Assembly: GCA_001443025.1 (NCBI GenBank)
Contig: LEKP01000003.1
Location: 22,652 to 86,651 of the forward strand
Length of the DNA: 64,000 nucleotides
Source of the DNA: Parcubacteria bacterium GBS-2
Lineage (GTDB): Bacteria; Patescibacteriota; Minisyncoccia; Minisyncoccales; GBS-2
Reading direction: 5' to 3'
The position numbers and the translations under genes are program-made. The notes beneath the pieces are model-generated. The model was not told the DNA's origin. It searched no databases and saw only the letters and a list, made by a program, of their open reading frames with translations. The first letter of the stretch is position 1, and every line of letters starts with the position of its first letter. Below, in pieces: positions 1,083-33,955 of this stretch.

Positions 1083-1096
1083 ATCTTTTCCAATTA

Positions 1097-1209
1097 ACGG
1101 GGGCTACCTACTTTCCCCGGGAGAAGTTCCCGAGTATCATCGGCCTTGGGGTATTTCACTTCCGAGTTCGGAATGGGATCGGGTGGGTCAACCCCAGCAT
1201 AGCCCCCAT
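1097..1209 (-). rRNA. rrf: 5S rRNA
   Basis: Minus-strand sequence carries CCCGATCCCATTCCGAACTCGGAAGTGAAA and a terminal helix GGGGGCTA...TAGCCCCC. GC-rich island in an AT-rich context. Confidence 0.85.
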
Positions 1210-1557
1210 TAACTGGAAAAGATGAGTTTTAACTGCTAGTCAAGAGCCAATTCGCCAATTAGTAGCGCTCCCCTCAATCCCTTACGGGACTTACAGGTGC
1301 GCCCTATCAAGGTCGTAGTCTCCAACCTGGCTCAAGGGGACCTAATCTTGGGGTGGGCTTCGAGCTTAGATGCTTTCAGCTCTTATCCCGTCCCGACGTG
1401 GTTACTGGGCTGTGCGGCTGGCGCCACAACCCATACGCCAGAGGTCAGTTGACCCCGGTCCTCTCGTACTAGGGGCCACTCCCCTCAAGTCCCCAGACGC
1501 CCGCGGTAGATAGGGACCGTACTGTCTCACGACGTACTGAACCCAACTCACGGGTCT

Positions 1558-1588
<31 letters not shown>

Positions 1589-2404
1589 GCTTCTCCACCC
1601 CCAGGATGAGACGAGCCGACATCGAGGTGCCGAACAGGGCCGTAGATGTGAACTCGCGGGCCCTACCAGTCTGTTATCCCCGGCGTAACTTTTGGCCGAT
1701 GATCTCCCCCCTTCCTACAAAGGAGGGTCGGTTCACTAGGGCCGGGTTTCCCCTCTGCTCTCTGCGTCCAGATCGCAGTCAGGCCGGCTTATGCCCTTGC
1801 ACTTTAAGGGCGATTTCCATCCGCCCCAAGCCGACCTTATGCGCGCCCTCGTTACTTTTTAGAGGGCAGATGCCCCATCTAAACTGCCTCGGTGGCACTG
1901 TTCCCACCTTAGCTTGGTTTTTGCCCTAAGCTAAAGTTGAGTTAGAACTTTAGCCTCCAGTGGCGGGTGTTCCATTGGCGGCTCCAGCAGGCCCGGAGAC
2001 CTGCCTTCATAGCCTCCCCGCTACGCTATGCACCAGAAACCAAAGTTCAATACCACCTAGCAGTAAAGCTGCCGGGGTCTTTCCGTCTAGCCGCGGGTAG
2101 GGTGCATCTTCACACCCACTGTATTTTCACCGGGCAGCTGGGGGAGACAGTTCCCCAGTGGTTAAGCCTTTCATGCAGGCCGGAACTTACCCGACAAGGG
2201 ATTACGCTACCTTCGGACGGTCAGAGTTACCGCCGACGCTTACCCGTGGCTTGAGCCGGTGAACTCCCAGAAAAACTCCAGGAATCCCCAGCCGTAACAC
2301 ACGGGCGCTGGTCAGGCCTCAGCCCCTATACATCAGCTTTCGCTTTTTAGCAGGGACCTGTGTTTTTGTTAAACAGTCCCCAGGGAAACTTTCGCTGCGA
2401 CCAG

Positions 2405-2552
2405 ACGCCTCGCTACCGCGAGCCGTAGTAATTAGTTGATTAGTAATTTAGCTGATTAGTAAATTAGCAAATAAATGCTAATTTACTAAAGGTCGCGAAA
2501 GCGACCGTACTAATTTACTAATTACTCCGCTTCGCGATAGCGAAGCGCTGGC
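2405..2552 (-). other. ~125-nt AT-rich expansion segment inside 23S (helix-63 region by alignment from memory)
   Basis: Lies between the conserved blocks CCGTAACTTCGGGAGA and CTGTTTAACAAAAACACAG. Contains reiterated ATTAGTAA words that fold back on each other, plus GC hairpins GGTCGCGAAAGCGACC and GCTTCGCGATAGCGAAGC. Confidence 0.6.
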
Positions 2553-3012
2553 AACCCATCTCCCGAAGTTACGGGTAGCTTTTTTGCCGAGTTCCTTCCC
2601 CAGCTTTCACCCGTTGGCCTTGGTATTCTCTACCAGCCCACCTGTGTCGGTTTGCGGTACGGTTACCTAGGAGTTAACCCTACGGGCTTTTCTAGGAAGA
2701 GGATTCATCAGGAACCCCGGAAAATCCGGCTGAGGGAAAGCCAATAATCCCTCCCAACTACTCCTCTTCGTCACCCTTCAGAACCCCTAGGTAGGGTGGG
2801 AATATTAACCCACTGCCCGTCAGGTGCGCCTTTCGGCTTCCCCTTAGGACCGCCTAACCCGTGGTCGATCACCGTTGCCACGGAAACCTTGGGCTTTCGG
2901 CCCCTGGGGCTTTCACCCAGGTTGCGGTTACTCATGCCAACATCCGCACTCGCCACCAGTCCACCAAGCCTCACGGCTTGACTTCAACCCGGTGGCGACG
3001 CTCCCCTACCAA

Positions 3013-3116
3013 CCACTGCTCCGCAGTGAAATTCCAAATCACAAAATCCAAATTCCAAACATTATTAATTTATGATTTGGTGCTTGGAATTTGGTGCTTC
3101 CATTGCGGAGCAATGG
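3013..3116 (-). other. IVS-like extended hairpin in the 23S helix-45 region
   Basis: About 104 nt replace the short hairpin between CACCGAAG... and ...GGTAGGGGAGCGT. The basal stem CCATTGCTCCGCAATGG / CCACTGCTCCGCAGTGG is near-perfect, and the AT-rich distal arm is self-complementary. Confidence 0.6.
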
Positions 3117-3801
3117 CTCCCCATCTTCGGTGGAGAGCTTAAGCCCCGTTAAATCTTCGGCGCAGGGTCCCTCAACTGGTAAGCTGTTACGCACTTTTTA
3201 AAGGATAGCTGCTTCTAAGCTCACCTTCCAGTTATCTAAGGGACCCCACTTCCTTCTTTTAGCACTTAGCCCTCACTTAGGGACCTTAGATTGGGGTCTG
3301 GGTTGTTCCCCTCTCGACCTAGGACCTTATCGCCCTAAGTCTGACTGCCAGGATGTTAGCAGATAGCATTCGGAGTTTGGTAGGAATATCTGGCAAAAAC
3401 CACGATATTCCTTCCAGTGCTCTACCGCCATCTGCAAACTCCTGACGCTATGCCCAAACATATTTCGGGGAGAACCAGCTATTCCCGAGCTAGTTTAGCC
3501 TTTCACTCCTTGCCCCAGCTCATCCCAAGGTTTTGCACAACCCACGGGTTCGGGCCTCCAGGAAGATTTCTCTTCCCTTCACCCTGGCCAGGGCAAGCTC
3601 GCTCGGCTTCGGGTCTCTCACCCTCCCCTAACGGGCTATTCACCCTCGCTTTCACTCTGCCTACGGGGGATCACCCCTTAGACATGGGGAGAATGAGAAC
3701 TCGTTGGCTCCTGCTCCAATAGGTACGCAGTCAGGGAGAATTTTCTCCCCTCCTGCTCCTTGTGAGTGGATGGTTTCAGGTTCTGTTTCACCCCCCTCAC
3801 C

Positions 3802-3835
<34 letters not shown>

Positions 3836-4538
3836 GCACTATCGGTGTGCGGGAGATATTTAGCCTTGGGAGGTAGTCCTCCCTGCTTCCCACAAGGTTT
3901 TCTTGGCCTCGTGGTACTCGGGGTATAAGACCTGAGAGTTCTCTCCCTTTCGCCTACGGGGCTTTCACCCTCTATGGCAGTCCGTTCCAGGATCTTTCGG
4001 CTAGAGAGAGAATTTATAACTCTCTGAGGATTTTCTCCTCCGTCTTACCCCCACAACCTCCCCCCAGATGTATATCTGGGGGGGTTTGGGCTCCTCCCTT
4101 TTCGCTCGCCGCTACTCAGGGAATACCTTTTGGTTTCTTTTCCTCCGGGTACTGAGATGTTTCACTTCCCCGGGTCTCGCCTCCCCAGGAATTCTCCTGG
4201 AAGGATGAGTGGGGTTTTCCCACCCAGGTTTCCCCATTCGGGAATCCCGGGATCACAGGTTGCTACGCACCTCCCCCGGGCTTATCGCAGCTACGCCACG
4301 CCCTTCATCGCTCCCCGCACCCAAGGCATCCTCCATCCACCCATAAAAGGCTCTTGACTAGCAACCAAAACCCACCTTTGACTCAGAAACCAAACAACCA
4401 ATTCCCTATTCACTTTTAAAGTTCTTCCATCAATCAAACAACCGCCTCGGAGGCGGTTGTTCCAAGAAATTAAGGAGAACTTAAAAATCTAACCGCCTCC
4501 TTTCAATCGATTCATAATTATTTCCTCCATCAATTTCA

Positions 4539-4566
4539 AATTTAACAAATCAAAAGAATTTGTCAA
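4539..4566 (-). promoter_or_regulatory. Sigma70-like promoter for 23S-5S
   Basis: Minus strand TTGACA (4561-4566), 16 nt, TAAATT (4539-4544). It lies just downstream of the preceding gene's stop and ~175 nt upstream of the 23S 5' end. A leader hairpin AACAACCGCC-TCCGA-GGCGGTTGTT sits at ~4437-4461. Confidence 0.45.
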
Positions 4567-4587
4567 GACCTTTAATTTCAGAAATTT

Positions 4588-5274
4588 TTATCTTTCAGAA
4601 ATTTTTTTTCTTATTTCTTCAATCAATTTTGCAGCTGCATCCTTTCCACCTAATCCAAAAGCTAATCCCAGTGCCAAAGAAATAGTACCGATCAACCCAA
4701 AAATCAAAGCATTAACAATCTGAGGAGTTACTCCAAGTTGAAGCAAAATCGCCAATGTAGCAAAAACATAAACTGCTCCTTTCACTAAAGTTCCAAAAAA
4801 TCCTGCATAGCCAACCTCTATTTTCTTTACGGACGCCTTAACTACTTTCTCTAAAATATCGGCAATAATAATCGCAACTACAAAAATTACCACTGCAACT
4901 ATTAAATTCGGTAGCCATAAAACTATTCCTCTTAAAAATTCGGCAAATTGAGTCAATCCTAAAATTTCAACTGCTGCTAACAGAAAAACGATCACTAAAA
5001 TCCATCTGAAAATTTCTCCAATGAATTCTGAGACAGCGACTTTAATTTCTGCTTTTTCTAATGCTTCTTTCCATCCAGCCCTTTCAAAGAATCTATCTAG
5101 CTTTATTTTCCTTAAAACCCCACCAATCATTTTCCCAATTACCAGGGCAACAAACCAACCAACGATAAATACAATCGTTGCTCCGATTAACTTTGGCAAA
5201 AAGAACAGAAAGCCCTTCCAAAGATTCTGCAAGGCTTCCAGAGTAATTAAGGACCAATTTTGAATCATTGTCAT
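4588..5274 (-). CDS. Small multi-pass membrane protein, mechanosensitive-channel-like (conserved TM-helix repeats)
   Basis: 228 aa with four or more hydrophobic helices and repeated charged linkers. Resembles the 'conserved TM helix' MscS-related family from memory. No search was run. Confidence 0.45.
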   Translation of the reverse strand: MTMIQNWSLITLEALQNLWKGFLFFLPKLIGATIVFIVGWFVALVIGKMIGGVLRKIKLDRFFERAGWKEALEKAEIKVAVSEFIGEIFRWILVIVFLLAAVEILGLTQFAEFLRGIVLWLPNLIVAVVIFVVAIIIADILEKVVKASVKKIEVGYAGFFGTLVKGAVYVFATLAILLQLGVTPQIVNALIFGLIGTISLALGLAFGLGGKDAAAKLIEEIRKKISER

Positions 5275-5309
5275 AAAATAAAAGGTTAATTTCGACCTTT
5301 AAAAATCTT

Positions 5310-5381
5310 TGGACCCGGTGGGATTCGAACCCACGACCTCCGCATTGCAAATGCGGCGTTCTACCACTAAACTACAGGCCC
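5310..5381 (-). tRNA. tRNA-Ala (anticodon UGC)
   Basis: Cloverleaf folds by hand: acceptor GGGCCTG/CGGGTCC with a G3:U70 pair, anticodon loop TTTGCAA, T-loop TTCGAAT, discriminator A. No encoded CCA. Confidence 0.95.
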
Positions 5382-5541
5382 AGTCGCTCGCCTCTCCAGC
5401 GCTATCGCACTGGCGCCCCGCCGTGAAATTTTTCACGCGGGGCTTCGGCTCGCTCTCCATAGGGGAAACCGAGGTTCCTCCCTCTCCATGGCGCTCAGAC
5501 ATCTCTTTAAAGGAGATTGTCTTCGCTGTCATCCCCTCTTT
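5382..5541 (-). ncRNA. GC-rich structured spacer between rpmG and tRNA-Ala (modules X+Y of a repeated tRNA-leader element)
   Basis: Module Y (5385-5443) matches 30799-30857 at 41 of the first 43 nt. Module X (5459-5484) is identical over 26 nt to 5873-5898. It forms three hairpins and ends 3-4 nt before the tRNA 5' end. Confidence 0.5.
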
Positions 5542-5703
5542 CTATCTTATTTCCTTGTGTATTGTATGTTTTTTACAAAATTTGCAGTATTTTTTCAACT
5601 CCAGTTTTTTCTTTCCACCTTTCTTTGATTTTCTTTTGTAATAATTTATTCTTTTGCACTCTGAACACTGAAGTTTTGTCAATTGTGATTTTTTCTTTGG
5701 CAT
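5542..5703 (-). CDS. rpmG: 50S ribosomal protein L33
   Basis: Absent from the track (53 aa). Hand translation: MPKKKSQLTKLQCSECKRINYYKRKSKKGGKKKLELKKYCKFCKKHTIHKEIR*. It has the two CxxC zinc-ribbon pairs and the LELKKYC...HT.HKE signature of L33. Confidence 0.85.
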   Translation of the reverse strand: MPKKKSQLTKLQCSECKRINYYKRKSKKGGKKKLELKKYCKFCKKHTIHKEIR

Positions 5704-5704
5704 G

Positions 5705-5776
5705 AGCCAGAGGTGGGAATTGAACCCACGACCTTTCCCTTACCAAGGGAACGTTCTACCACTGAACTACTCTGGC
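5705..5776 (-). tRNA. tRNA-Thr (anticodon GGU)
   Basis: Acceptor GCCAGAG/CTCTGGC, anticodon stem-loop TTCCC-TTGGTAA-GGGAA, T-loop TTCAATT, discriminator U. No encoded CCA. Confidence 0.95.
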
Positions 5777-5777
5777 G

Positions 5778-5862
5778 TGGGTGGGGCAGGATTTGCACCT
5801 GCGGAGGCAAAACTGCCGTCTGGTTTACAGCCAGACCCCTTTGTCTACTCGGGAACCCACCC
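5778..5862 (-). tRNA. tRNA-Tyr (anticodon GUA), class II with long variable arm
   Basis: Acceptor GGGTGGG/CCCACCC, anticodon stem-loop TCTGG-CTGTAAA-CCAGA, variable arm CGGCAGTTTTGCCTC. A single nucleotide separates it from tRNA-Thr. Confidence 0.95.
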
Positions 5863-5927
5863 TTTTCCCTCAATAGGGGAAACCGAGGTTCCTCCCTCAA
5901 TTGCGCTCCACTCACCCCTCCGCTTTG
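5863..5927 (-). ncRNA. GC-rich spacer between tRNA-Ile and tRNA-Tyr (module X copy)
   Basis: Contains the 26-nt block ATAGGGGAAACCGAGGTTCCTCCCTC (plus-strand 5873-5898), identical to 5459-5484. Folds as GGGAGGAAC-CTCG-GTTTCCCC. Confidence 0.4.
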
Positions 5928-5999
5928 TGGGCATGGTAGGAATCGAACCTACGACCTCACCCTTATCAGGGGTGCGTTCTACCATTGAACTACATGCCC
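5928..5999 (-). tRNA. tRNA-Ile (anticodon GAU)
   Basis: Acceptor GGGCATG/CATGCCC, anticodon stem-loop CACCC-CTGATAA-GGGTG, T-loop TTCGATT, discriminator A. Confidence 0.95.
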
Positions 6000-6010
6000 A
6001 CCACTTCTTT

Positions 6011-6039
6011 AATATAACTTTTTATCAAGTTTTTTGCAA
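6011..6039 (-). promoter_or_regulatory. Promoter of the tRNA-Ile/Tyr/Thr-rpmG-tRNA-Ala unit
   Basis: Minus strand TTGCAA (6034-6039), 17 nt, TATATT (6011-6016), 11 nt upstream of the tRNA-Ile 5' end. Confidence 0.5.
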
Positions 6040-6071
6040 ATTGATGATTCATTCTGATTTTTATTAAATCT

Positions 6072-6266
6072 TCAAAAATTCCTCTTTAGTCCAAAAACTT
6101 TTATTTTTTGATTCTCAAATTTCTTCAAAAATTCAAAACTTCCATCACTTGAACCATCGTCAACAAAAATAACTTCGTCTCCAAAATCAATTTCTTTTAA
6201 AACCTTAGCAATTTTGCCTACCCTTTCTCTTTCATTGAAAACTGATAAAATTGTAGAAACTCTCAT
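6072..6266 (-). pseudogene. Family-2 glycosyltransferase N-terminal fragment (64 aa)
   Basis: MRVSTILSVFNERERV...VIFVDDGSSDGS is the N-terminal Rossmann/DxD part of a GT2 enzyme. The ORF stops after 64 aa, whereas GT2 enzymes are usually over 200 aa. Confidence 0.55.
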
Positions 6267-6808
6267 TTTTCCAAAACAAAAATTTTCTTTTTTATCAAAA
6301 AATCTTTCTCTGAAATTAACTTTAAGCCAAGTTTTTTAAAAATTTCTTCCCACTCTTTTTTAGTGTGAAAATTAAATTTTGGAGATTTTCCAAAAAACAA
6401 ATTCCAACTTATCCAGTGAAAAAAACAATAAAGTTTTCCTAAAATTCCTTCTGGTAAATCTTCAAAAATAATTATTCTCTTTCCAACTCTTTTTGCCTCT
6501 TGCAAAATTGAAATTGGATCTTCTGTGTGGTGCAAAACAAAAGAAATTATTACTAAACCGAAAAAATTTTCAGGAAAAGGTATTTTTTTGCCATCGTAAA
6601 TTTTGAATGGAATATTGCAAACTCTTTTATCAACAATGTCTATTCCAATAACTTCTTTTTTCAATCTCTCTCTTATTTTTTCTCCTAAAATTCCAGAGCC
6701 ACAACCTAAATCCAAAATTTTCTCACCTTCCAAAAACTTCTCAATTTCATTTACCATCTTTTCTGCTGCAATCTCATAGAATCGCTGAAAAATCTTCCAA
6801 AAGCTCAT
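6263..6808 (-). CDS. Class I SAM-dependent methyltransferase
   Basis: Motif I ILDLGCGSGILG and the post-I acidic GIDI; 181 aa. Confidence 0.75.
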   Translation of the reverse strand: MSFWKIFQRFYEIAAEKMVNEIEKFLEGEKILDLGCGSGILGEKIRERLKKEVIGIDIVDKRVCNIPFKIYDGKKIPFPENFFGLVIISFVLHHTEDPISILQEAKRVGKRIIIFEDLPEGILGKLYCFFHWISWNLFFGKSPKFNFHTKKEWEEIFKKLGLKLISEKDFLIKKKIFVLEK

Positions 6809-7278
6809 TTTTTCTTTGAAAAGCTTCCAAAGACCAAATCTGGTATTAACTTTTTAAGATCTTTTGTAAAAATTTTTATCGAAAAATTCCAATCTCCACC
6901 GTTTAAAATGATTTCTTTTTCTCTCTTTATCGAATTGTCAACAAAAGTTTGGCATTTCCATAAATTCCCAAAAGGAGGAATCGCTCCCAGTTTTACTCCT
7001 TTTATTCTCTTTTTAATTAATCTTTCAGATGCCAACTCAATTTTTTCTTTATCTATTTTCTTTTTAATTTTTTTAAGATCAAGCTTTTTACTTGCTGGAA
7101 TTAAAACAAAAACCAAAGAATTATTCGCTTTTAAAATCAAGGTCTTTCCAACAATTTTTTCAGGAACTTTTAAAGTTTGAGATTTATCGAAAGCAGTAAA
7201 AACGGTTTTGTGTTTGATTATCTCGTACTTTACTTTTGCTTTCTCTAAAAAATTAATGATTCTTTTTGATACAGCCAT
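6805..7278 (-). CDS. YbaK/ProX-type aminoacyl-tRNA deacylase-like protein
   Basis: From internal Met (MAVSKRIINFLEKAKVKYEIIKHKTVFTAFD...GAIPPFG...ILNGG) the sequence resembles YbaK/EbsC-fold proteins. The track ORF's extra 64 N-terminal codons overlap the 16S trailer and processing stem, so I discarded them. Confidence 0.6.
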   Translation of the reverse strand: MAVSKRIINFLEKAKVKYEIIKHKTVFTAFDKSQTLKVPEKIVGKTLILKANNSLVFVLIPASKKLDLKKIKKKIDKEKIELASERLIKKRIKGVKLGAIPPFGNLWKCQTFVDNSIKREKEIILNGGDWNFSIKIFTKDLKKLIPDLVFGSFSKKK

Positions 7279-7288
7279 TCTTTTTAAA

Positions 7289-7316
7289 ATTTTACAAAAT
7301 AAAAAAGGCTTGTCAA
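7289..7316 (-). promoter_or_regulatory. Promoter of the ybaK-like gene
   Basis: Minus strand TTGACA (7311-7316), 16 nt, TAAAAT (7289-7294), 10 nt before the ATG at 7278. Confidence 0.45.
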
Positions 7317-7323
7317 TCAAGCC
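7296..7323 (-). terminator. Terminator-like hairpin after the 16S transcription unit
   Basis: Minus strand GGCTTG-ATTGA-CAAGCC followed by TTTTTTATTTT. It lies ~45 nt downstream of the 16S 3' processing-stem strand. Confidence 0.5.
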
Positions 7324-7365
7324 GTTCTGGTTATCTAGTTGTCTGGTTATTTGGTGGAATGGTTG

Positions 7366-7391
7366 GGAAAGTTCCTTTGAGTTGTCCCGAC
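7366..7391 (-). other. 16S 3' processing-stem strand
   Basis: RNA-sense GUCGGGACAACUCAAAGGAACUUUCC is complementary (25 Watson-Crick pairs + 1 G:U) to the leader segment encoded at 9391-9416. Confidence 0.7.
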
Positions 7392-7858
7392 CCAGTCGAG
7401 ATTTAGGGCTCCTCGACCAACACCCTAGGATCAAGAAGGGAATTCCATCTCCTTGATCCCAGTCGACCAAAAATTTAATGAGTGATCCACGGGCACCTTC
7501 CGGTACCCGTACCTTGTTACGACTTCGCCCCTCTCACCGGTCCCAGGCTAGTCCAGCTTCCGCTGGGTTTCGCCTGTTACCGGCTCGCTTGGCGTGACGG
7601 GCGGTGAGTACAGGGCTCGGGAACGTATTCACCGGAACATGGCTGATTTCCGGTTACTAGCGATTCCTGCTTCACGGGGTCGAGTTGCAGACCCCGATCC
7701 GAACTGGGGCGGCTTTTAAGGGATTAGCTCCGCCTTACGGCTTGGCAACCCTTTGTAGCCGCCATTGTTCCACGTGTGCAGCCCAGGGCATAAGGGCCAT
7801 GCTGGCCTGGCGTCGTCCCCACCTTCCTCCGGCTCAAACCGGCAGTCCCGCATGACAT

Positions 7859-8172
7859 CCCCCGCACCACTTTTAGCTTCAAGCTAATAAGCAATTTTTA
7901 ATTCTTTTCAGAAGTTCTTGTTTTGCCCTGCCATGGTATTTTAATCTTCTTTCTCTTAAGGTAGCATCTTTTTCACTTGAATATGCTTCAACATAAATGA
8001 GCCTCCATTTTCCCTTTTCCTTAGTAAATCTCGATCTCCCAATTCTATGTTCTTCCAGTCTTCGTTTTAAATCTTTCGTTTTTCCAATATAAAGTTCTTT
8101 CGTTATTTCATTTTGAAGAAGGTATACATACCACCACATTATTAAATCTTAAAACCAAAAGTGGTGCGGGGG
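7859..8172 (-). mobile_element. Stem-flanked insertion in 16S (helix-39 region) carrying a GIY-YIG ORF
   Basis: A perfect 16-bp inverted repeat, CCCCCGCACCACTTTT (7859-7874) / AAAAGTGGTGCGGGGG (8157-8172), brackets an AT-rich 282-bp core. The core is almost entirely ORF 7879-8139. Flanking sequence resumes conserved 16S (…GGGACTGCCGG…). Confidence 0.65.
7879..8139 (-). CDS. GIY-YIG nuclease-domain protein (YhbQ/UPF0213-like), encoded inside the 16S insertion
   Basis: WYVYLLQNEITKELYIGKTKDLKRRLEEHR...RLIYVEAYSSEKDATLRERRLK matches the GIY...YIG...R...E catalytic layout. Same orientation as the rRNA. Confidence 0.8.
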   Translation of the reverse strand: MWWYVYLLQNEITKELYIGKTKDLKRRLEEHRIGRSRFTKEKGKWRLIYVEAYSSEKDATLRERRLKYHGRAKQELLKRIKNCLLA

Positions 8173-8944
8173 CAAACATGCGGCGAGGGTTGCGCAGGTT
8201 TTGGCATCTAAGCTTGCGCCTCACGGTACCTGCTGACGACGGCCATGTAGCACCTGTGCCAGTGTCCTTGTGGAACCCCACGGTTTCCCGCAGGTTTCAC
8301 TGGCATGTCAAGCCCTGGTAAGGTTCCACGGTTGTCGTCGGATTGAGCCACATGGACCACCGCTTGTGCGAGCCCCCGTCTATTCCTTTGAGTTTCACCC
8401 TTGCGAGCGTACTTCCCAGGCGGGGCACTTAACGCGTAAGCTTCGCCACCCACAGGGTCGACACTGCAGGCAGCTAGTGCCCATCGTTTAGGGCGTGGAC
8501 TACAGGGGTATCTAATCCCCTTTGCTCCCCACGCTTTCGTCCCTCAGCGTCAGGGTCGGCCCAGCCGGCTGCCTTCGCTTTCGGCGTTCCTGCCGATATC
8601 AACGGATTTCACCCCTACACCGGCAGTTCCACCGGCCTCTACCGCCCTCTAGTCAAACAGTATCTCAGGCATTCCTCAGGTTGAGCCCGAGGTCTTTAAC
8701 CTGAGACTTGCTTGACCGCCTACGGTACCCTTTACGCCCAGTAAATCCGGCTAACGCTTGTGGCTCACGTATTACCGCTGCTGCTGGCACGTGATTGGCA
8801 GCCACTTATTCCTGCGGTACTCTCACCCCCCAGATATACATCTGGGGGGTTGCTCCCGCAGAAAAGGGGTTTACAACCCGAAGGCCTTCTTCCCCCACGC
8901 GGCGTCGCTGGGTCAGGGTTTCCCCCATTGCCCAATATTCTCGG

Positions 8945-8988
<44 letters not shown>

Positions 8989-9172
8989 GCGGCGGCCACC
9001 CTCTCAGGCCACCTACCCGTCATAGGCTTGGTGGGCCATTACCCCACCAACTACCTGATAGGCCGCGGGCCCTTCCCAGAGCGGTTGGGGTTTTACCCCT
9101 TCCCTTTACTGTTTGGGAATTTCACCCAAACAGACTATCGGGGATTAGCCTGGTTTCCCAGATTGTCCCCGT

Positions 9173-9235
9173 CTCTCCTCCGTCGCCCTTACGGGCTTTG
9201 GAGGACCCACCGTAGCTCGAGAGAGCGAAGGTGGG
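9173..9235 (-). other. ~63-nt GC-rich insertion near the 16S 5' domain
   Basis: Lies between GTAACACGTGGGTAACCTACCCCA and ACGGGGACAATCTGGGAAACC, where E. coli has a direct continuation (from memory). Forms hairpins CCCACC...GGTGGG and TCCTCC...GGAGGA. Confidence 0.5.
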
Positions 9236-9390
9236 TGGGGTAGGTTACCCACGTGTTACTGCCCCGTTCGCCAGGTACCAAGTACAGTATGAGAAACCCC
9301 ATACTGTCTTGGCCCTCTGACTTGCATGCCTTATCCACGCCGCCAGCGTTCAGCCTGGACCAGGATCAAATCCTCAAGAAAAGAAAGAGA

Positions 9391-11571: not shown

Positions 11572-14500
11572 ATGAAGTTTACTCATTTACATGTTCATTC
11601 ACATTATTCTCTTTTAGACGGACTTCCTAAGGTCGATGAGATTTTGGATTATTGCCAAAAACTAGGAATGGATTCGGTCGCGCTGACTGATCATGGAGTA
11701 ATCTATGGAGCGGTTGAATTCTACAAAAAGGCAAAAGAGAGGGGAATAAAACCAATAATCGGGGCTGAGCTTTATTTAGCGATAGAAAGTAGATTTCAAA
11801 AAAGACCTGGAATAGACGATAAAAGATACCATATTGTTTTGTTAGTTAAAAATGAAACAGGCTACAAAAATCTAGTAAAACTAATCACTAAAGCGTATCT
11901 GGAAGGTTTTTACTATAAACCGAGAATCGACGAAGAATTACTTTTTCAACATTCAGATGGTTTAATCTGCCTTTCTGCTTGCATTCAAGGAAAAATTCCT
12001 CAGCTTATTTTAGCAAGAAAATTTGATGAAGCAAAAAAAACTGCCTGGAAATATCAAGAAGTTTTCGGAAAAGAAAATTTTTACCTAGAGATCCAGCACC
12101 ATCCGAACATAAAAGAGCAAAGAATTGTAAACGAAGCCTTGATCGAAATTTCAAAGAAATTAAACATTCCTTTAGTCGCTACAAACGACTGCCATTATCT
12201 AAGACCTGAAGAGGCAGAAGCGCAAGATATTTTAATGTTAATCAACACAGGCGCTAACCCTAACGATCCAGAAAGACTTACCATGTTGGCGGACGATTTC
12301 TCAATGAGACCACCAGAAAAAATGATTGAGGATTTCAAAAATATTCCAGAGGCGATTGAAAATACTCAAAAAATTGTTGAGGCTTGTAACTTTGAATTCA
12401 AATTAGGAGAAGTAAAAATGCCAAAGTTTGAAACGCCAAACGGAAAAACTCCGGAAGAATATTTAGAAGAGCTTTGTTATCAAGGATTAAAGAAGAGGTA
12501 CGGAGAAAAAATTGAGGAAAAAGTGTTAGAAAGATTGAGGTATGAACTAGATGTTATCAAAAAAACTGGTTTTGCCTCTTATTTTTTGATCGTCCAAGAT
12601 TTTGTAAATTGGGCGAAATCTCAAAGAATTGTTGTAGGCCCTGGTAGAGGATCTGTAGGAGGCTCTTTGGTAGCCTATGCCCTGGGAATTACAGAAATCG
12701 ATCCTTTAAAGCATGGTCTTTTATTTGAAAGATTCTTAAACCCAGAAAGAGTATCGCCTCCAGACATTGATGTTGATTTTACCGATGAAAGAAGGGATGA
12801 AGTAATTGAATATTTGGCCCAAAAGTATGGAAGAAATAAAGTAGCACAAATTATTACCTTTGGAACAATGGCAGCGAGAGCGGTAGTGAGAGATGTCGGA
12901 AGAGCCTTAGGGTATTCATATTCTTTCTGTGATAAAATTGCAAAATTAATTCCTTCCCATTCAACCTTAGATGAGGCGTTAGCAAAAGTAATAGAACTCA
13001 GACAGGTTTATCAAAATGACGAAAAAGTCCAAAGGCTTTTGGATTTGGCAAGAAAATTGGAAGGAAGAGCAAGACACGTATCAACCCACGCTTGTGGAGT
13101 AGTAATTTCTACAATTCCGTTAGAGGAAATTTGCCCTTTACAGCATCCAACTCAAGACGATGAAACAATTGTTACTCAATATGAAATGAGATCTTTGGAG
13201 GATTTGGGACTTTTAAAAATTGATATTTTAGGTTTAAAGAATCTAACGTTGATTGAAGAAACATTAAAGAAAATTTATGCCATTTATAAGAAAGAAATAA
13301 ACTTAAATGAAATTCCTTTTGACGATAGAAAAACCTACAAACTCTTTCAAAGAGGAGAAACAATTGGAGTGTTCCAATTTGAATCTGAAGGAATGAGAAA
13401 ATGGTTGAAAAAATTAAAACCGAATGTCTTTGAAGATTTAGTTGCAATGATTGCTCTTTATCGACCAGGTCCAATGCAATTTTTGCAAGATTATATAGAT
13501 GGGAAGTTTAAAAGAAAAAAAATTAATTATTTGCATGAAAAGTTGAAACCAATTTTAGAAAAAACCTATGGAGTAATGATTTATCAAGAACAATTGATGG
13601 AAGTGGCAAGAAGTTTGGCTGGTTTTACTCTAGGAGAAGCCGATGTTTTAAGAAAGGCAGTGGGAAAGAAAATAAAGTCTCTTTTGGAGGCACAAAGAGA
13701 AAAATTAATTGAGGGAATGATTAAAAACGGAATTCAAAGAGAGGTAGCTCAAAGAATCTGGGAATGGATTTTGCCCTTTGCCTCTTATGGTTTCAACAAA
13801 TCCCACAGCGTAGCCTATGCCAAAATTGCTTTTTACACTGCTTTCTTGAAAGCTCATTTCCCTGTAGAATTTATGGCTTCTCTTTTGAGTTCTGAACAAG
13901 CCGATGTCGAAAAAATCGGGTTTTTAATCGAAGAGTGCAAAAGAATGGGAATTGAGGTTTTACCACCAGATATTAACGAAAGTTTCAGAAATTTCTCAGT
14001 AGTTCCTGGAAAAAATCAAATTCGTTTTGGGTTGTTAGCAATAAAAAATGTTGGAACAAACACAGTTGAGGCAATCGTTGAAGAAAGAAAGAAAAACGGT
14101 CCTTTTAATTCATTAACCGATTTTCTTTTAAGGATTGAACCTCAAAATTTGAATAAAAAATCTCTAGAAAGTATGATAAAAGCAGGGATTTTTGATAGGT
14201 TCGGGGAAAGAAATCAATTACTTTTTAATTTAGAAAGGATTTTAGAATGGAATAGAGAAAATTATAAAATGAGAAATCAAGGACAAATGGGACTGTTTGA
14301 TTTTTGGGGGAAAAGAAAATTGGAGATAAAACTGGAAAAAACAACTCCTGCAACAAAAATGCAAAAGCTTTCCTGGGAAAAGGAATTATTGGGACTTTAT
14401 GTATCTGCCCATCCTGCCGAGGATTTTCAAAGAATCTTTGAGAAAAAAGCAACTCCAATTTCAAAAATTACAAAGGAAATGGTAGGAAAAATAATCAAGG

Positions 14501-29621: not shown

Positions 29622-30653
29622 TTAGAACTGGTGTAAAAACCTTAAATCGCCTGAATTAAACAACCTTATGTCTGGAATTTTATATTTGAGCATTACTAAT
29701 CTATTCATTCCAAAGCCAAAAGCAAATCCCTGCCATTCTTTTGGATTTAATTTACAGTTTTTGTAAACATTAGGATGAACCATTCCTGCCCCTCCGCATT
29801 CTAGCCATCCTGAATTCTTACAAACTTGGCATCCTTTTCCATTACAAAGAACGCAAGAAATGTCTACTTCAAAAGAAGGCTCAGTAAATGGAAAAAAAGA
29901 AGGCCTCAACCTAATTTTTACTTCTTTTTCAAAAAATCTTTTTAAGAATTCTTCAATAATTGCCTTAAAGTTTGCAACAGAAATATCTTTCCCAACCATC
30001 AATCCTTCAAGCTGCCAAAAATCTATTTCATGAGAGGCATCAATAGCATCTAATCTAAAGACTCTTCCTGGAACGATAATTCTCAATGGTGGCGAATTCT
30101 TCTCCATGTAGCGAATTTGGACTGAAGAAGTATGACTTCTCATTAATCCACCGCTTTTTAAATAAAAAGTTTTCCCCAAAGATAAAACATCTCTTGCTGG
30201 GTGGTCTGGAGGGATGTTTAAGGCATCGAAATTGTGCCATTCATCTTCGATTTCTGGTCCTTCAACAACTTCAAATCCCATTGATTGGAAAATCTCTTCT
30301 ATTTTTCTTCTAGCAAGGGTAATTGGATGATAATGACCGATGGGAGCTTTTGGAGGAGGGATTGTAATATCGATCCATTCTTTTTCTTCTACTTCTTTTT
30401 CAGCCTTTTCTTTTAATTCCTTTGCCTTCTTTTCAAATTCCTCCATTAAACTTTCTTTCATTTTTCCAAACTTTTCGCCAAAGATTTTTCTTTGCTTTTT
30501 GGGCAATTTTGGAATGATCTTTGAAATTTTCTTAACCTCCCCATCTTTTCCGAAAACTTCTTTGAAAATTGTGTCCAATTCTTTTAAACTTTCTGCTTTT
30601 TCAATTTTCTTTCTTACTTTGTTTTCAAGGCTTTTGAGATCAATTTTTTCCAT
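29622..30653 (-). CDS. pheS: Phenylalanyl-tRNA synthetase alpha subunit
   Basis: Class II motifs (HPI..., FRLDAIDASH, GGAGMVHP, GFAFGFGMNRL). Confidence 0.95.
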   Translation of the reverse strand: MEKIDLKSLENKVRKKIEKAESLKELDTIFKEVFGKDGEVKKISKIIPKLPKKQRKIFGEKFGKMKESLMEEFEKKAKELKEKAEKEVEEKEWIDITIPPPKAPIGHYHPITLARRKIEEIFQSMGFEVVEGPEIEDEWHNFDALNIPPDHPARDVLSLGKTFYLKSGGLMRSHTSSVQIRYMEKNSPPLRIIVPGRVFRLDAIDASHEIDFWQLEGLMVGKDISVANFKAIIEEFLKRFFEKEVKIRLRPSFFPFTEPSFEVDISCVLCNGKGCQVCKNSGWLECGGAGMVHPNVYKNCKLNPKEWQGFAFGFGMNRLVMLKYKIPDIRLFNSGDLRFLHQF

Positions 30654-30661
30654 ATACTCAA

Positions 30662-30690
30662 ATTTTAAAATAAAAAGGGTTAAAAATCAA
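30662..30690 (-). promoter_or_regulatory. Promoter of pheS (leaderless geometry)
   Basis: Minus strand TTGATT (30685-30690), 17 nt, TAAAAT (30662-30667), 8 nt to the ATG at 30653. Overlaps the tRNA terminator hairpin. Confidence 0.45.
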
Positions 30691-30695
30691 CCCTT
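30663..30695 (-). terminator. Terminator after tRNA-Thr(UGU)
   Basis: Minus strand AAGGGTT-GATTTTT-AACCCTT followed by TTTATTTT. Confidence 0.55.
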
Positions 30696-30722
30696 ACTCA
30701 CTCAACCTGAGTCTAAATTTTG

Positions 30723-30794
30723 AGCCGGCGGAGGGATTTGAACCCACGACCCACCGCTTACAAGGCGGTTGCTCTACCACTGAGCTACGCCGGC
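30723..30794 (-). tRNA. tRNA-Thr (anticodon UGU)
   Basis: Acceptor GCCGGCG/CGCCGGC, anticodon stem-loop ACCGC-CTTGTAA-GCGGT, T-loop TTCAAAT (one U:U mismatch in the T stem), discriminator U. No encoded CCA. Confidence 0.9.
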
Positions 30795-31022
30795 ACCTCG
30801 CTCGCCTCTCCAGCGCTTTCGCGCTGGCGCCCCGCCGTGAATCCTCCACGCGGGGCTTCGCTGCCACCTCCTCCTGGTAGGTAGAAATTATTCTCTTACT
30901 TTTAGTACACGGGCTCGCTTCGTTCCACTCTTCATAGGGGAAATCTAGTTTTCCCTTGATTGTTGTTTTACTCACTCCTTCGTTATCGCTTCGGGAATTC
31001 TCTTTGCAGTCACTTCCCTCCT
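30795..31022 (-). ncRNA. ~230-nt structured leader upstream of tRNA-Thr(UGU) (long version of the tRNA-leader element)
   Basis: Module Y (30799-30857) is near-identical to 5385-5443. A module-X-like hairpin GGGAAAACTAGATTTCCCCTATG lies at ~30933-30958. Additional hairpins are present and there is no credible ORF. Confidence 0.45.
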
Positions 31023-31029
31023 GCTAGAT

Positions 31030-31057
31030 AGAATACTATGTTGATGTCTGACGTCAA
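31030..31057 (-). promoter_or_regulatory. Candidate promoter of the tRNA-Thr(UGU) leader
   Basis: Minus strand TTGACG (31052-31057), 16 nt, TATTCT (31030-31035). The -35 lies inside the palindrome ATGTTGACGTCAGACATCAACAT. Confidence 0.3.
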
Positions 31058-31198
31058 CATAACTTTCTGAAAGTTGCGATCTTTGTCGTCATTTTTCTTC
31101 CTAATTAAGGATTAATTTTTCAACCCTCGACTACGCTTCGCTTATTCTCTTCTGTCAAAAATCAATTTTTCCTTTTTAAAAAGTACCTAACCAGAAGA

Positions 31199-31531
31199 CT
31201 ATTTAATCTCTCTCTTTATTTTATCCCAATACTCATCAGCTTTTCGCTTTTCTTTTTTTCTTTGTTTTTCCCTTAATTTTTTCAGCCAGTGAAAAGTTAA
31301 ATTATCAATTTTTAGACTCAAAATTCTTACTCTAGCAATCCACTTTTGTAAAAAAATCTCGAAGGAAAAGTCTCTAAATGGGTTCAATTTTTTAATTTTC
31401 TTTTTAAATTTTGAAATCGCATCTTCTCGAGGAAACTCAAATGCCAAAATTAAAGGAATTTTTCTAATAAAGGTAAAAAACATTCCAAAAAAACTCAAAA
31501 CTAAAATTATAAGGAAAATTACCTCTAACAT
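31199..31531 (-). CDS. Hypothetical membrane-anchored protein
   Basis: 110 aa with an N-terminal TM (VIFLIILVLSFFGMFFTFI) and a basic C-terminus. No motif recognised. Confidence 0.4.
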   Translation of the reverse strand: MLEVIFLIILVLSFFGMFFTFIRKIPLILAFEFPREDAISKFKKKIKKLNPFRDFSFEIFLQKWIARVRILSLKIDNLTFHWLKKLREKQRKKEKRKADEYWDKIKREIK

Positions 31532-32824: not shown

Positions 32825-33955
32825 ATGACAGATGAAAAAGAGGTGAAGGTGTTTAAGTTATGGAGGGAACTCTTGGAACAAGGACCCACAAATGAAGATT
32901 TGCGCTATATCATTAAGTGGGTAGAACCTTTAAGGAAAGAGGCTGGGCAGAAACTCTTGGAACAAGGGCCAACAAAGGAAGATTTGTTCTATATCATTAC
33001 GTGGGTAGAACCTTTAAGGAAAGAGGCTTGGGAGAAACTCTTGGAACAGGGGCCCACAAAGGAAGATTTGCGCTATATCATTAAGTGGGTAAAACCTTTA
33101 AGGAAAGAGGCTTGGGAGAAACTTTTGGAACAAGGACCCACAAATGAAGATTTGCGCTATATCATTAAGTGGGTAGAACCTTTAAGGAAAGAGGCTGGGC
33201 AGAAACTCTTGGAACAAGGGCCAACAAAGGAAGATTTGTTCTATATCATTACGTGGGTAGAACCTTTAAGGAAAGAGGCTTGGGAGAAACTTTTGGAACA
33301 AGGACCCACAAATGAAGATTTGCGCTATATCATTAAGTGGGTAGAACCTTTAAGGAAAGAGGCTGGGCAGAAACTCTTGGAACAAGGGCCAACAAAGGAA
33401 GATTTGTTCTATATCATTAAGTGGGTAAAACCTTTAAGGAAAGAGGCTTGGCAGAAACTCTTGGAACAGGGGCCCACAAAGGAAGATTTGTTCTATATCA
33501 TTAAGTGGGTAGAACCTTTAAGGAAAGAGGCTTGGGAGAAACTTTTGGAACAAGGACCCACAAATGAAGATTTGCGCTATATCATTAAGTGGGTAGAACC
33601 TTTAAGGAAAGAGGCTTGGCAGAAACTCTTGGAACAAGGGCCCACAAATGAAGATTTGCGCTATATCATTGAGTGGGTAGAACCTTTAAGGAAAGAGGCT
33701 TGGCAGAAACTCTTGGAACAAGGGCCCACAAATGAAGATTTGCGCTATATCATTGAGTGGGTAGAACCTTTAAGGAAAGAGGCTGGGCAGAAACTCTTGG
33801 AACAAGGGCCAACAAAGGAAGATTTGTTCTATATCATTGAGTGGGTAGAACCTTTAAGGAAAGAGGCTTGGGAGAAACTCTTGGAACAGGGGCCCACAAA
33901 GGAAGATTTGCGCTATATCATTAAGTGGGTAAAAACCTTTAAAGAGAGAGGCTAA
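32825..33955 (+). CDS. Tandem-repeat protein: 13 x 28-aa helical-type units (LLEQGPT.EDL.YII.WV.PLRKEA..K)
   Basis: A 376-aa ORF with no signal peptide. After 15 N-terminal residues the whole protein is 28-aa units. Visibly GC-richer than its neighbours. Has its own promoter and terminator. Confidence 0.8.
   Translation: MTDEKEVKVFKLWRELLEQGPTNEDLRYIIKWVEPLRKEAGQKLLEQGPTKEDLFYIITWVEPLRKEAWEKLLEQGPTKEDLRYIIKWVKPLRKEAWEKLLEQGPTNEDLRYIIKWVEPLRKEAGQKLLEQGPTKEDLFYIITWVEPLRKEAWEKLLEQGPTNEDLRYIIKWVEPLRKEAGQKLLEQGPTKEDLFYIIKWVKPLRKEAWQKLLEQGPTKEDLFYIIKWVEPLRKEAWEKLLEQGPTNEDLRYIIKWVEPLRKEAWQKLLEQGPTNEDLRYIIEWVEPLRKEAWQKLLEQGPTNEDLRYIIEWVEPLRKEAGQKLLEQGPTKEDLFYIIEWVEPLRKEAWEKLLEQGPTKEDLRYIIKWVKTFKERG
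32870..33955 (+). repeat. 84-bp tandem repeat array, 12 full units + 1 truncated
   Basis: Units are ~90-100% identical at the DNA level. A 168-bp higher-order block (units 1-2) recurs as units 4-5. Confidence 0.95.

Follow-up and report, generated by a model that had tools for sequence, protein, structure and literature searches.

A folded, multi-copy leader element upstream of tRNA genes in Patescibacteria, and its chimeric copy before tRNA-Thr(UGU)

Known leaders of stable RNAs and a family of tRNA leaders

The leader of a bacterial tRNA is regarded as short and without structure, a piece to be discarded. Here we describe an element of up to ∼230 nucleotides (nt), folded and conserved, that stands before many tRNA genes; one copy forms the leader of tRNA-Thr(UGU) in a 64-kb stretch of contig LEKP01000003.1 (the whole stretch is called the window below). 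Ordinary pre-tRNA 5' leaders share with this element their place directly 5' of the mature tRNA, an A or U at position −1 and, presumably, removal by RNase P. They are, however, short, unstructured and not conserved between tRNA genes, as in the related loci L009–L062 (L marks a comparison locus), whereas the element is a folded, conserved domain of 110–230 nt common to at least 10 different tRNAs. The leaders of rRNA operons (boxB-boxA-boxC, nut-like) are likewise promoter-proximal on stable-RNA operons, act in cis, as we propose for the element, and are then discarded. The element differs from them in being tRNA-specific and multi-copy, and no boxA-like sequence was seen in it, although no formal search was made. 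REP/BIME, ERIC and Correia elements are also multi-copy, modular, structured when transcribed, in some cases equipped with promoters, and kept alike within a genome, but they are scattered between genes in both orientations, whereas the element has one orientation and abuts tRNA 5' ends. By analogy, the element would work most like a stable-RNA operon leader or a repeated extragenic element, with a strict placement at tRNA 5' ends that differs from both.

In our proposal the element is a cassette of promoter and leader: the leader folds by itself, RNase P takes it off, and the cassette serves in cis as an expression and maturation module. We assign this reading a probability of roughly 0.5. 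The descriptive part (that the family exists, how it is structured, where it lies and occurs, and that the window copy is a chimera) is near-certain; for the cis role of the cassette the odds are about even.

The family was visible within the window itself. The last 64 nt of the tRNA-Thr(UGU) leader are 90.6% identical to the tRNA-Ala leader (5384-5447, E = 8e-19), the remainder aligns with it more loosely, and across the central P3 region the leader of tRNA-Tyr can be aligned to both of them. The window thus holds three copies, before tRNA-Thr(UGU), tRNA-Ala and tRNA-Tyr. Between rpmG and tRNA-Ala(UGC) lies a full standard ('alpha') unit (5384-5541, minus strand; 159.3 bits, E = 6e-43; fold z = −5.8), and before tRNA-Tyr(GUA) a short beta-type unit composed of the 5' box and P3 only (5863-5924, minus strand; 21.8 bits, E = 2e-4). 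Scanning metagenomes of the Joint Genome Institute (JGI) with the shared 19-mer GCGCTGGAGAGGCGAGCGA returned 24 loci, 14 of them low-G+C contigs (32–48%) with the element; the other 10 were high in G+C and were judged chance matches. A covariance model (R1), built from 11 full units (alignment A2), identified 29 units in the window and the 14 low-G+C loci. About 26 are distinct once the duplicate loci L094 (= L088) and L097 (= L095) are set aside. A weak match inside the 23S gene (E = 0.048) was taken as chance. The first-pass annotation had suspected a recurring tRNA-leader element, and it does recur, both in the window and in related organisms.

The placement of the units is strict. Ten tRNAs bear the element: Ala, Tyr, Thr(UGU), Ser(GGA), Ser(UGA), two Met, Asp, Trp and Ile(UAU). 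Every unit lies on the strand of the tRNA and directly upstream of the tRNA or of another unit, with the orphan copy in L096 as the exception. The terminal unit ends 0–4 nt from tRNA +1 in 17 cases, and short units that have no junction end equally close (by eye). A standard unit measures 110–160 nt. Tandem or partial units precede tRNA-Met1 in L093 (two), tRNA-Ala in L090 (three) and each of two tRNA-Ser genes in L103 (three). The leaders of tRNA-Asp in L093 and tRNA-Trp in L100 form a near-identical pair on separate contigs. The leader family is multi-copy with high similarity between copies, as repetitive extragenic or MITE-like elements are.

Two single loci deserve mention. In L102 (2980-3051) a full leader element stands before a tRNA-Ile with the anticodon UAU; this anticodon is unusual, since in most bacteria AUA is read by a lysidine-modified CAU tRNA. 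In L096, which has no Rfam match, two motifs, CCCAAUCCUAAG and GUGGGUGCC, lie in the loop of the terminator hairpin that follows the orphan; ∼100 nt further downstream they appear again on the other strand, their order exchanged, beside a convergent terminator.

Structure of the element and comparison with known RNA families

The structure was derived with RNAalifold on a MAFFT alignment and by pair counting on a 22-sequence model alignment, and seven helices are supported by the covariance-model alignment. From 5' to 3' the element consists of a G-rich 5' box GGGGUGACAG, P2, P3, a three-way junction (P4, P5, P6), the dinucleotide GA and the linker. The P2 hairpin has GC / tandem G·A as its closing pairs (GCGAG...CGAGC), P3 is CCAUGG-A-GGGGAGA...UCUCCCC-UAUGG, and P4 is GCGAGCC/GGCGAGC, again with tandem G·A. 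P5 is variable (3–10 bp). P6 is CCAGCGC/GCGCUGG, flipped to CUGGCGC/GCGCCAG in a second subtype, and P6 and P4 covary across the family. The joining strands GAAG and AGA are conserved and the hairpin loops vary.

In the 22-sequence alignment, which was fitted to the model and so favours the structure, 95.1% of the cells are paired, compared with 36–51% when the partners are slid, and 29 of the 37 pairs have changed on both sides. None of 500 shuffles equalled the alignment on any of five measures. An independent run of MAFFT and RNAalifold on 11 sequences gave double changes at 15 of 37 pairs. A tally of the per-pair table adds ∼31 G·U cells (11 of them at one P3 pair, for example), which pair only on the tRNA-sense strand and therefore point to selection on RNA and not on DNA hairpins. 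The compensatory changes exceed both the shuffled and the slid controls, as is the case for a structured RNA under selection. The retention of so much sequence in very small genomes suggests that the leader has a role.

The conserved junction invites the idea of a sensor (riboswitch, thermometer or protein-binding leader) in which the junction gates the access of RNase P and thus tRNA output, a natural counterpart of the 'RNase P riboswitch'. Its conserved purine-rich joining strands (GAAG, AGA) lie 2–6 nt from the cleavage site, and there is an engineered precedent: PMC7897497 describes a riboswitch in which sequestration of the leader controls RNase P cleavage. Both place a 5' leader structure beside the RNase P site; the riboswitch is synthetic and ligand-controlled. 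We nevertheless consider a sensor very unlikely, given an architecture too variable for a ligand pocket (P5 of 3–10 bp, beta units without a junction), no alternative pairing backed by covariation, and an element tied to no particular tRNA identity.

Release of the tRNA 5' end by a self-cleaving ribozyme is less credible again, to the point of being extremely improbable. Hammerheads have an invariant catalytic core (CUGANGA, GAA, cleavage after H) around a three-way junction. In the element GAA and one C are the joining strands of the junction, and its CUGGAGA has a superficial likeness to CUGANGA. However, no ribozyme family matched at E ≤ 10 or E ≤ 1, the variable linker of 0–4 nt would not give exact tRNA 5' ends, and there is no conserved catalytic core: 'CUGG' is the 3' strand of P6 and covaries to CCAG, for which reason the hammerhead was rejected.

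The Infernal scan of Rfam that the first-pass annotation had proposed matched no known family. It covered 4227 models, at gathering score on the window, at E ≤ 10 over 30500-31400 and at E ≤ 1 on five related loci. The earlier view that the leader is not RNase P RNA, transfer-messenger RNA (tmRNA) or signal recognition particle (SRP) RNA held up, with no Rfam match even at E ≤ 10. RNase P RNA (RF00010, RF00011, RF00373), whose P4 core is formed by the conserved regions CR-I to CR-V, was rejected as it matched at none of the three settings, gathering, E ≤ 10 or E ≤ 1 on the five related loci; its gene is normally single-copy, which three copies in one 64-kb window do not fit. For tmRNA, which combines an acceptor/T-arm domain like that of tRNA-Ala with a tag reading frame, ARAGORN found none in the window or the metagenome loci, and the downstream gene is a complete tRNA-Thr(UGU). 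SRP RNA, 6S RNA and the remaining Rfam families gave no match; elsewhere in the scanned sequence only tRNA, rRNA and the L10 leader did. GOLLD and ROOL are structured non-coding RNAs of 500–800 nt, phage-associated and often beside tRNA genes; their Rfam models do not match the element, and no copies of the element were found in viral contigs, where two pattern scans gave chance matches only.

T-box leaders (RF00230) are alike in being long and structured, in their G·A motifs and in a functional tie to tRNA, and GGUGGCAGCG loosely recalls a T-box sequence. In a T-box, Stem I carries a specifier codon matched to a tRNA, the T-box sequence itself belongs to an antiterminator in competition with a terminator, and the genes downstream are related to amino acids. 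The element stands instead upstream of tRNA genes, not of aminoacyl-tRNA synthetase genes, and has no specifier codon, terminator or antiterminator. The T-box idea, which came from GGUGGCAGCG and the hairpin after it, was dropped: RF00230 does not match, there is no terminator (on the tRNA strand the element has no internal hairpin-plus-U-run), and the same leader stands before different tRNAs. Reading P2 as a K-turn fails because its tandem G·A is flanked on both sides by Watson-Crick pairs, with no 3-nt bulge, and a tRNA-like reading of the junction found no tRNA-model or ARAGORN match on the elements. TIGR (tandem interspaced guide-RNA) arrays have short repeat units with variable spacers and lie next to a Tas (Nop-domain) gene. 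A TIGR array was discarded here, with units of 88–160 nt that lack variable spacers and abut tRNAs; the neighbours of the units differ (rpmG, hypothetical gene and pheS, tRNA clusters), and no conserved neighbouring protein gene was seen. TIGR-Tas systems occur in parasitic bacteria of the Candidate Phyla Radiation (CPR) type and in phages, according to PMC12045711.

Full-text literature searches returned no earlier description of the leader family. In our assessment it is a new RNA family, of a kind without earlier description, and its function is a proposal. Whatever that function, the family is well supported (model R1, alignments A2 and A4) and can be searched for in hot-spring metagenomes and metatranscriptomes.

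Make-up, setting and origin of the tRNA-Thr(UGU) leader

On the minus strand the gene order is rpsB-tsf-hypothetical gene, a 400-bp gap that contains the leader, tRNA-Thr(UGU) and pheS-pheT. The tRNA (30722-30794, minus strand; ARAGORN; Rfam tRNA model, 73.4 bits) has no encoded CCA, and the upstream hypothetical open reading frame (ORF) ends at 31199. In this gap the first-pass annotation had described no credible ORF, a promoter-like site in a palindrome, a purine-rich segment, a hairpin ('module X'), an AU-rich insert and a further module ('module Y'), and each of these is present on the minus strand. The only two ORFs of the gap both overlap the tRNA or its antisense strand and gave 0 Pfam matches, and a protein-coding reading was discarded on these grounds. 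Between tRNA-Thr(UGU) and pheS a terminator-like hairpin with a U-run is predicted (30675-30695, minus strand), so the tRNA is probably a transcription unit of its own.

The leader is ∼230 nt long, about three times the length of the tRNA, and all its parts are given here on the minus strand. It opens with GCAGGAGGGAAGUGACUGC (31024-31006) within a diverged beta-type unit (unit 1, 30931-31024) that is collinear with the beta-type units of L088 (tRNA-Tyr), L090 and L093 and with the tRNA-Tyr leader of the window. In unit 1 the G-rich 5' box reads GGAGGGAAGUGAC (31021-31009), the region of the P2 hairpin (31008-30963) surrounds GCGAUAAC, and 'module X' is a P3 hairpin GGGAAA/UUUCCC (30955-30938) with the flanks CAAUCAA...CUAUGAAG. 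Its P2 stem has AUUCC/GGAGU in place of GUGCC/GGCAC in L090, both sides having changed (read from the sequences). The start of a 'type-2' three-way junction follows, GAGUGGAACGAAGCGAGCCCGUGU (30907-30930), truncated inside P5. Its counterpart is GAGAGCGGAGCGAAGCGAGCCCGUGUGAA in the tRNA-Thr and tRNA-Met leaders of L093, and its GCGAGCC has GGCGAGC (30806-30800) as its partner in the minimum-free-energy fold.

What had been called a 45-nt insert is the spacer between two units. This AU-rich segment (30906-30875) includes a −10-like AATAAT/TAATTT and ends in AAUUUCUACCUACCA, a 5' flank that is conserved among beta-type units. It is found again, as aaatttctacctacca, before the tRNA-Tyr unit of L088; a closely similar one, tttctacctccta, stands before the tRNA-Trp unit of L111, and similar flanks occur in L093 and L100. 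Positions 30877-30864 read CCAGGAGGAGGUGG. Unit 2 starts with GGAGGAGGUGGCAGCGAAG (30856-30874), where the 5' box is joined straight to the junction and P2 and P3 are deleted. The 3' module ('module Y', 30798-30855), the part that is 90.6% identical to the tRNA-Ala leader, is made up of the P5 hairpin CCCCGCGUG...CACGGCGGGG (30855-30830), the P6 hairpin CCAGCGC-GAAA-GCGCUGG (30827-30810) with the junction strand AGA after it, and the 3' strand of P4, GGCGAGC (30806-30800), followed by GA. It abuts the tRNA, as first annotated, except that the linker GGU (30795-30797) to tRNA +1, the presumed RNase P cleavage site, has 3 nt and not 4.

The covariance model matches the leader over 30798-30933 (51.7 bits, E = 8e-13). 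On its own the sequence folds modestly better than shuffles (z = −2.5); support for the predicted structure of this leader comes from comparison with the other copies. A third, decayed unit at 31040-31105 was considered and rejected, as its alignment score of 28 against 20.1 ± 3.4 for shuffles (z ∼2.3) is not significant. In that segment (minus strand) UUAGGAAGAAAAAUGACGACAAAGAUCGC...AUGUUGACG resembles an A/U-decayed form of the standard-unit start UUAGGAAGAGGGGUGACAGCGAAGACGAUC...AUGUCUGAGCG; such a unit would contain the candidate −35.

The origin of the long leader can be read from its ortholog. In the syntenic locus L095/L097 (rpsB-tsf-hypothetical gene-[element]-tRNA-Thr-pheST; 86% identity for PheS and for EF-Ts, 91–92% for S2) a single standard unit of 145 nt precedes the same tRNA-Thr, and the window leader is collinear with it over the last ∼64 nt only. 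Because the ortholog has one unit, the 5' part of the window leader aligns with beta-type units and tandem or partial units occur elsewhere, sequence comparison identifies the 'long version' as a chimera of two unit types, about 1.5–2 units, which would have arisen by recombination within the family. The length noticed at first, ∼230 nt, thus stands, whereas the idea of a distinct longer RNA does not.

Association of the element with the same tRNA, which the first-pass annotation had proposed to check in other genomes, extends to the syntenic L095 (86% PheS identity); more distant relatives, L009 included, lack it. Model R1 and sequence searches gave 0 matches in 80 pheS loci of GTDB relatives (1.25 Mb, PheS 42–70% identical), which by our own count hold ∼130 tRNAs. 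In the closest of these relatives the regions upstream of tRNAs were read and are AT-rich, with no folded element. In L009 (PheS 67%) tRNA-Thr(UGU) follows the homologous upstream ORF with AT-rich, element-free sequence between them, so that the cassette has the appearance of an insert at this place. The flanks beyond the window ends were walked for further copies in the same genome and gave no extra tRNAs or elements.

The closest PheS relatives are Patescibacteria (CPR) genome bins, several of them labelled Nealsonbacteria or Paceibacterota. An identical PheS occurs on nine metagenome contigs, one of which is named GBSSSed77C, a name that we take to mean Great Boiling Spring sediment, 77 °C. 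The window has 35% G+C, with rRNA and tRNA genes as islands of 55–64%; the tRNA-Thr(UGU) leader, at 60–68%, equals these genes. G+C-rich rRNA and tRNA islands in an AT-rich genome fit a thermophile. The host is probably an AT-rich thermophile, and the carriers a small group of hot-spring Patescibacteria.

Promoter, proposed role and other features of the window

Upstream of unit 1 lies a candidate sigma-70-type promoter, TTGACG-16-TATTCT (31030-31057, minus strand; 9/12 consensus matches), within the inverted repeat ATGTTGA...TCAACAT (31060-31038). It predicts a start near 31024-31022 and hence a leader of ∼230 nt. Promoter-like sites number 4 in 1.2 kb where 2.4 are expected, so a match by itself proves nothing. 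In other copies, the first units have an AT-rich 5' sequence that ends in an extended −10 (TGaTATAAG; e.g. TGATATAAG) ∼7 nt before the conserved GGGG, and beta units have a second type of 5' flank, TAAAAT-TTCTACCTAnnAGGAGG. The TTGACG-16-TATTCT site of the window occupies the place equivalent to these sequences, which makes a promoter here plausible. The 16S leader of the window has an ordinary predicted promoter and no element; the element is therefore specific to tRNA units. At tRNAs without the element a −10-like hexamer ends 8–13 nt upstream (read by eye), implying near-leaderless transcripts for them.

Our model is as follows. A standard unit would bring its own promoter, an extended −10 with the start in the GGGG run, and from the cassette the tRNA would be transcribed without reliance on the upstream gene. 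The leader would fold on itself as a compact G+C-rich domain, and RNase P would cut at the tRNA 5' end and free it. In a host that is AT-rich and probably thermophilic, the cassette would thus be a module for the expression and maturation of tRNAs that works in cis, and recombination would keep the copies alike within a genome, the same process having made the chimeric copy of the window. If the element does act on tRNA transcription or 5' processing, it would represent a new layer of tRNA biogenesis. A cis role could amount to natural gating or recruitment of RNase P and might show how an AT-rich thermophile handles stable-RNA synthesis.

Several points weigh against this model. That the promoter is active, where the transcript ends lie, that RNase P cuts the leader off and that it acts in cis are all predictions, which we infer from sequence. 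Bacterial RNase P is not known to prefer a helix 2–6 nt from the cleavage site (its protein binds the leader), and in a folding test of 'insulation' the predicted cross-pairing with the tRNA was as extensive for native leaders as for shuffled ones. The element is not universal: in carrier lineages the tRNAs Ile(GAU), Val, Phe, Leu(GAG) and Ser(GCU) lack it, and the same tRNA occurs with or without it (Tyr in the window versus L111, Ser(GGA) in L092 versus L099). Modules are lost, P3 from the tRNA-Ala unit of L088 and the junction from beta units. The orphan copy in L096 (1334-1515), at 175.6 bits among the best-scoring, is followed by an 11-bp hairpin and a U-run and by no tRNA. Variable presence, module loss and tandem arrays are each as compatible with a repeat that is dispensable or selfish as with a cis function that is required. 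A motif scan for rnpA in the 64-kb window found none, a span that is uninformative on the content of the genome.

The same observations lead to the view that the element is a selfish or neutral recombining intergenic repeat that carries a promoter, is harmless before tRNA genes and brings no benefit for tRNA expression. Such a repeat would be expected to be multi-copy, modular and lineage-restricted and to leave tandem arrays and truncated and chimeric units; it also accounts for architectures that differ at orthologous loci (tRNA-Ala in the window, L088 and L090; tRNA-Thr in the window, L095 and L093), for the 90% identity over 64 nt of the tRNA-Ala and tRNA-Thr leaders of the window and near-identical pairs elsewhere, and for tRNAs found with or without the element. 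We still judge it unlikely. REP, ERIC and Correia elements do not share the strict position and orientation, 0–4 nt from tRNA +1, nor would one expect of a mere repeat the extensive compensatory changes with strand-specific G·U pairs, or its upkeep in very compact Patescibacteria. No terminal inverted repeats, target-site duplications or transposase were seen by eye at the units, although no systematic search was made. If the element is selfish after all, bacteria would have in it a repeat aimed at the 5' edge of tRNA genes, parallel to the tRNA-targeting retrotransposons of yeast and Dictyostelium.

The orphan raises the further idea of a stable, abundant ∼150-nt RNA that acts in trans and whose 3' end is made by RNase P at the downstream tRNA. 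MALAT1-mascRNA and 3'ETS-leuZ are comparable in that the upstream RNA would get its 3' end from an RNase P cut at a downstream tRNA or tRNA-like structure; these are single loci, whereas the element is a multi-copy family before genuine tRNAs. In L096 the high-scoring unit has its own promoter-like sequence and a terminator hairpin, the G+C content of the element equals that of stable RNAs, and its conserved junction with variable loops recalls protein-binding or compactly folded RNAs. There is, however, only one orphan; whole modules are dispensable, RNase P would not release the units inside arrays, and no conserved single-stranded loop is available to target another RNA. A trans-acting RNA therefore seems to us quite improbable.

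A bolder reading would make the element a new class of tRNA-linked functional RNA, a dedicated leader domain with a specific task in the tRNA biogenesis of thermophilic Patescibacteria. Through the junction it might attract RNase P, or another enzyme of 5' processing, or control its access, or the leader, released by RNase P, might be a stable RNA with its own function. We consider this view less likely than not. In either form it would be the first naturally occurring domain of structured RNA that is dedicated to tRNA genes in bacteria.

The window carries a bacterial rRNA set and five tRNAs, on the minus strand throughout, and its rRNA genes are unlinked (1095-9381, minus strand): 16S (7475-9381) and 23S (1239-4356) lie ∼3 kb apart. 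The stretch between them contains protein-coding ORFs, tRNA-Ile, Tyr and Thr, rpmG and tRNA-Ala; counterpart ORFs in the related locus L122 match Pfam tRNA_edit, methyltransferase, glycosyltransferase-fragment and MscS-like families. The 16S gene spans 1907 nt against a model of 1533 positions and has a low-G+C gap at ∼7890-8144. In L122 (6844-9301; related strain ERZ27289264) three LAGLIDADG homing-endonuclease ORFs lie within or just after the 23S match, which spans 3507 nt there versus 3118 nt in the window; the finding suggests rRNA introns that vary between strains.

The 3' end of 16S (7475-7500, minus strand) reads ...GUGGAUCACUCAUUAA and lacks the usual anti-Shine-Dalgarno CCUCC, and the 25 nt upstream of 49 predicted window genes are A-rich with no Shine-Dalgarno-like motif. 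Judging from these sequences, the organism appears not to use Shine-Dalgarno pairing. An anti-Shine-Dalgarno sponge, suggested by the many GGAGG motifs of the element, was rejected: 16S ends in GGAUCACUCAUUAA without CCUCC, and the genes have no Shine-Dalgarno motif. Purine-rich short repeats (GAGUGA, AAGUGAUC, AAUGAGU) occur upstream of several beta-type units and one element-free tRNA (L111 ∼12440-12500, L088 ∼170-215, L093 ∼720-760, and upstream of tRNA-Thr(GGU) in L111); some are complementary to the unusual 16S 3' tail (GAUCACUCAU).

In L094 (∼2600-2860) and L088 (1-200) tRNA-Ile(GAU) looks nested: between the 5' and 3' tRNA parts GGGCAUGUAGUUCAGUGGUAGA ... GGUCGUAGGUUCAAUUACUACCAUGCCCA an insert of ∼200 nt contains another whole tRNA-Ile(GAU) with an inverted repeat on its two sides. 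Finally, divergent from rpsB, the window contains a 376-aa ORF (32825-33955, plus strand) that consists nearly throughout of ∼11 tandem copies of a 33-residue repeat (LLEQGPTxEDLRYIIKWVEPLRKEAxQK).

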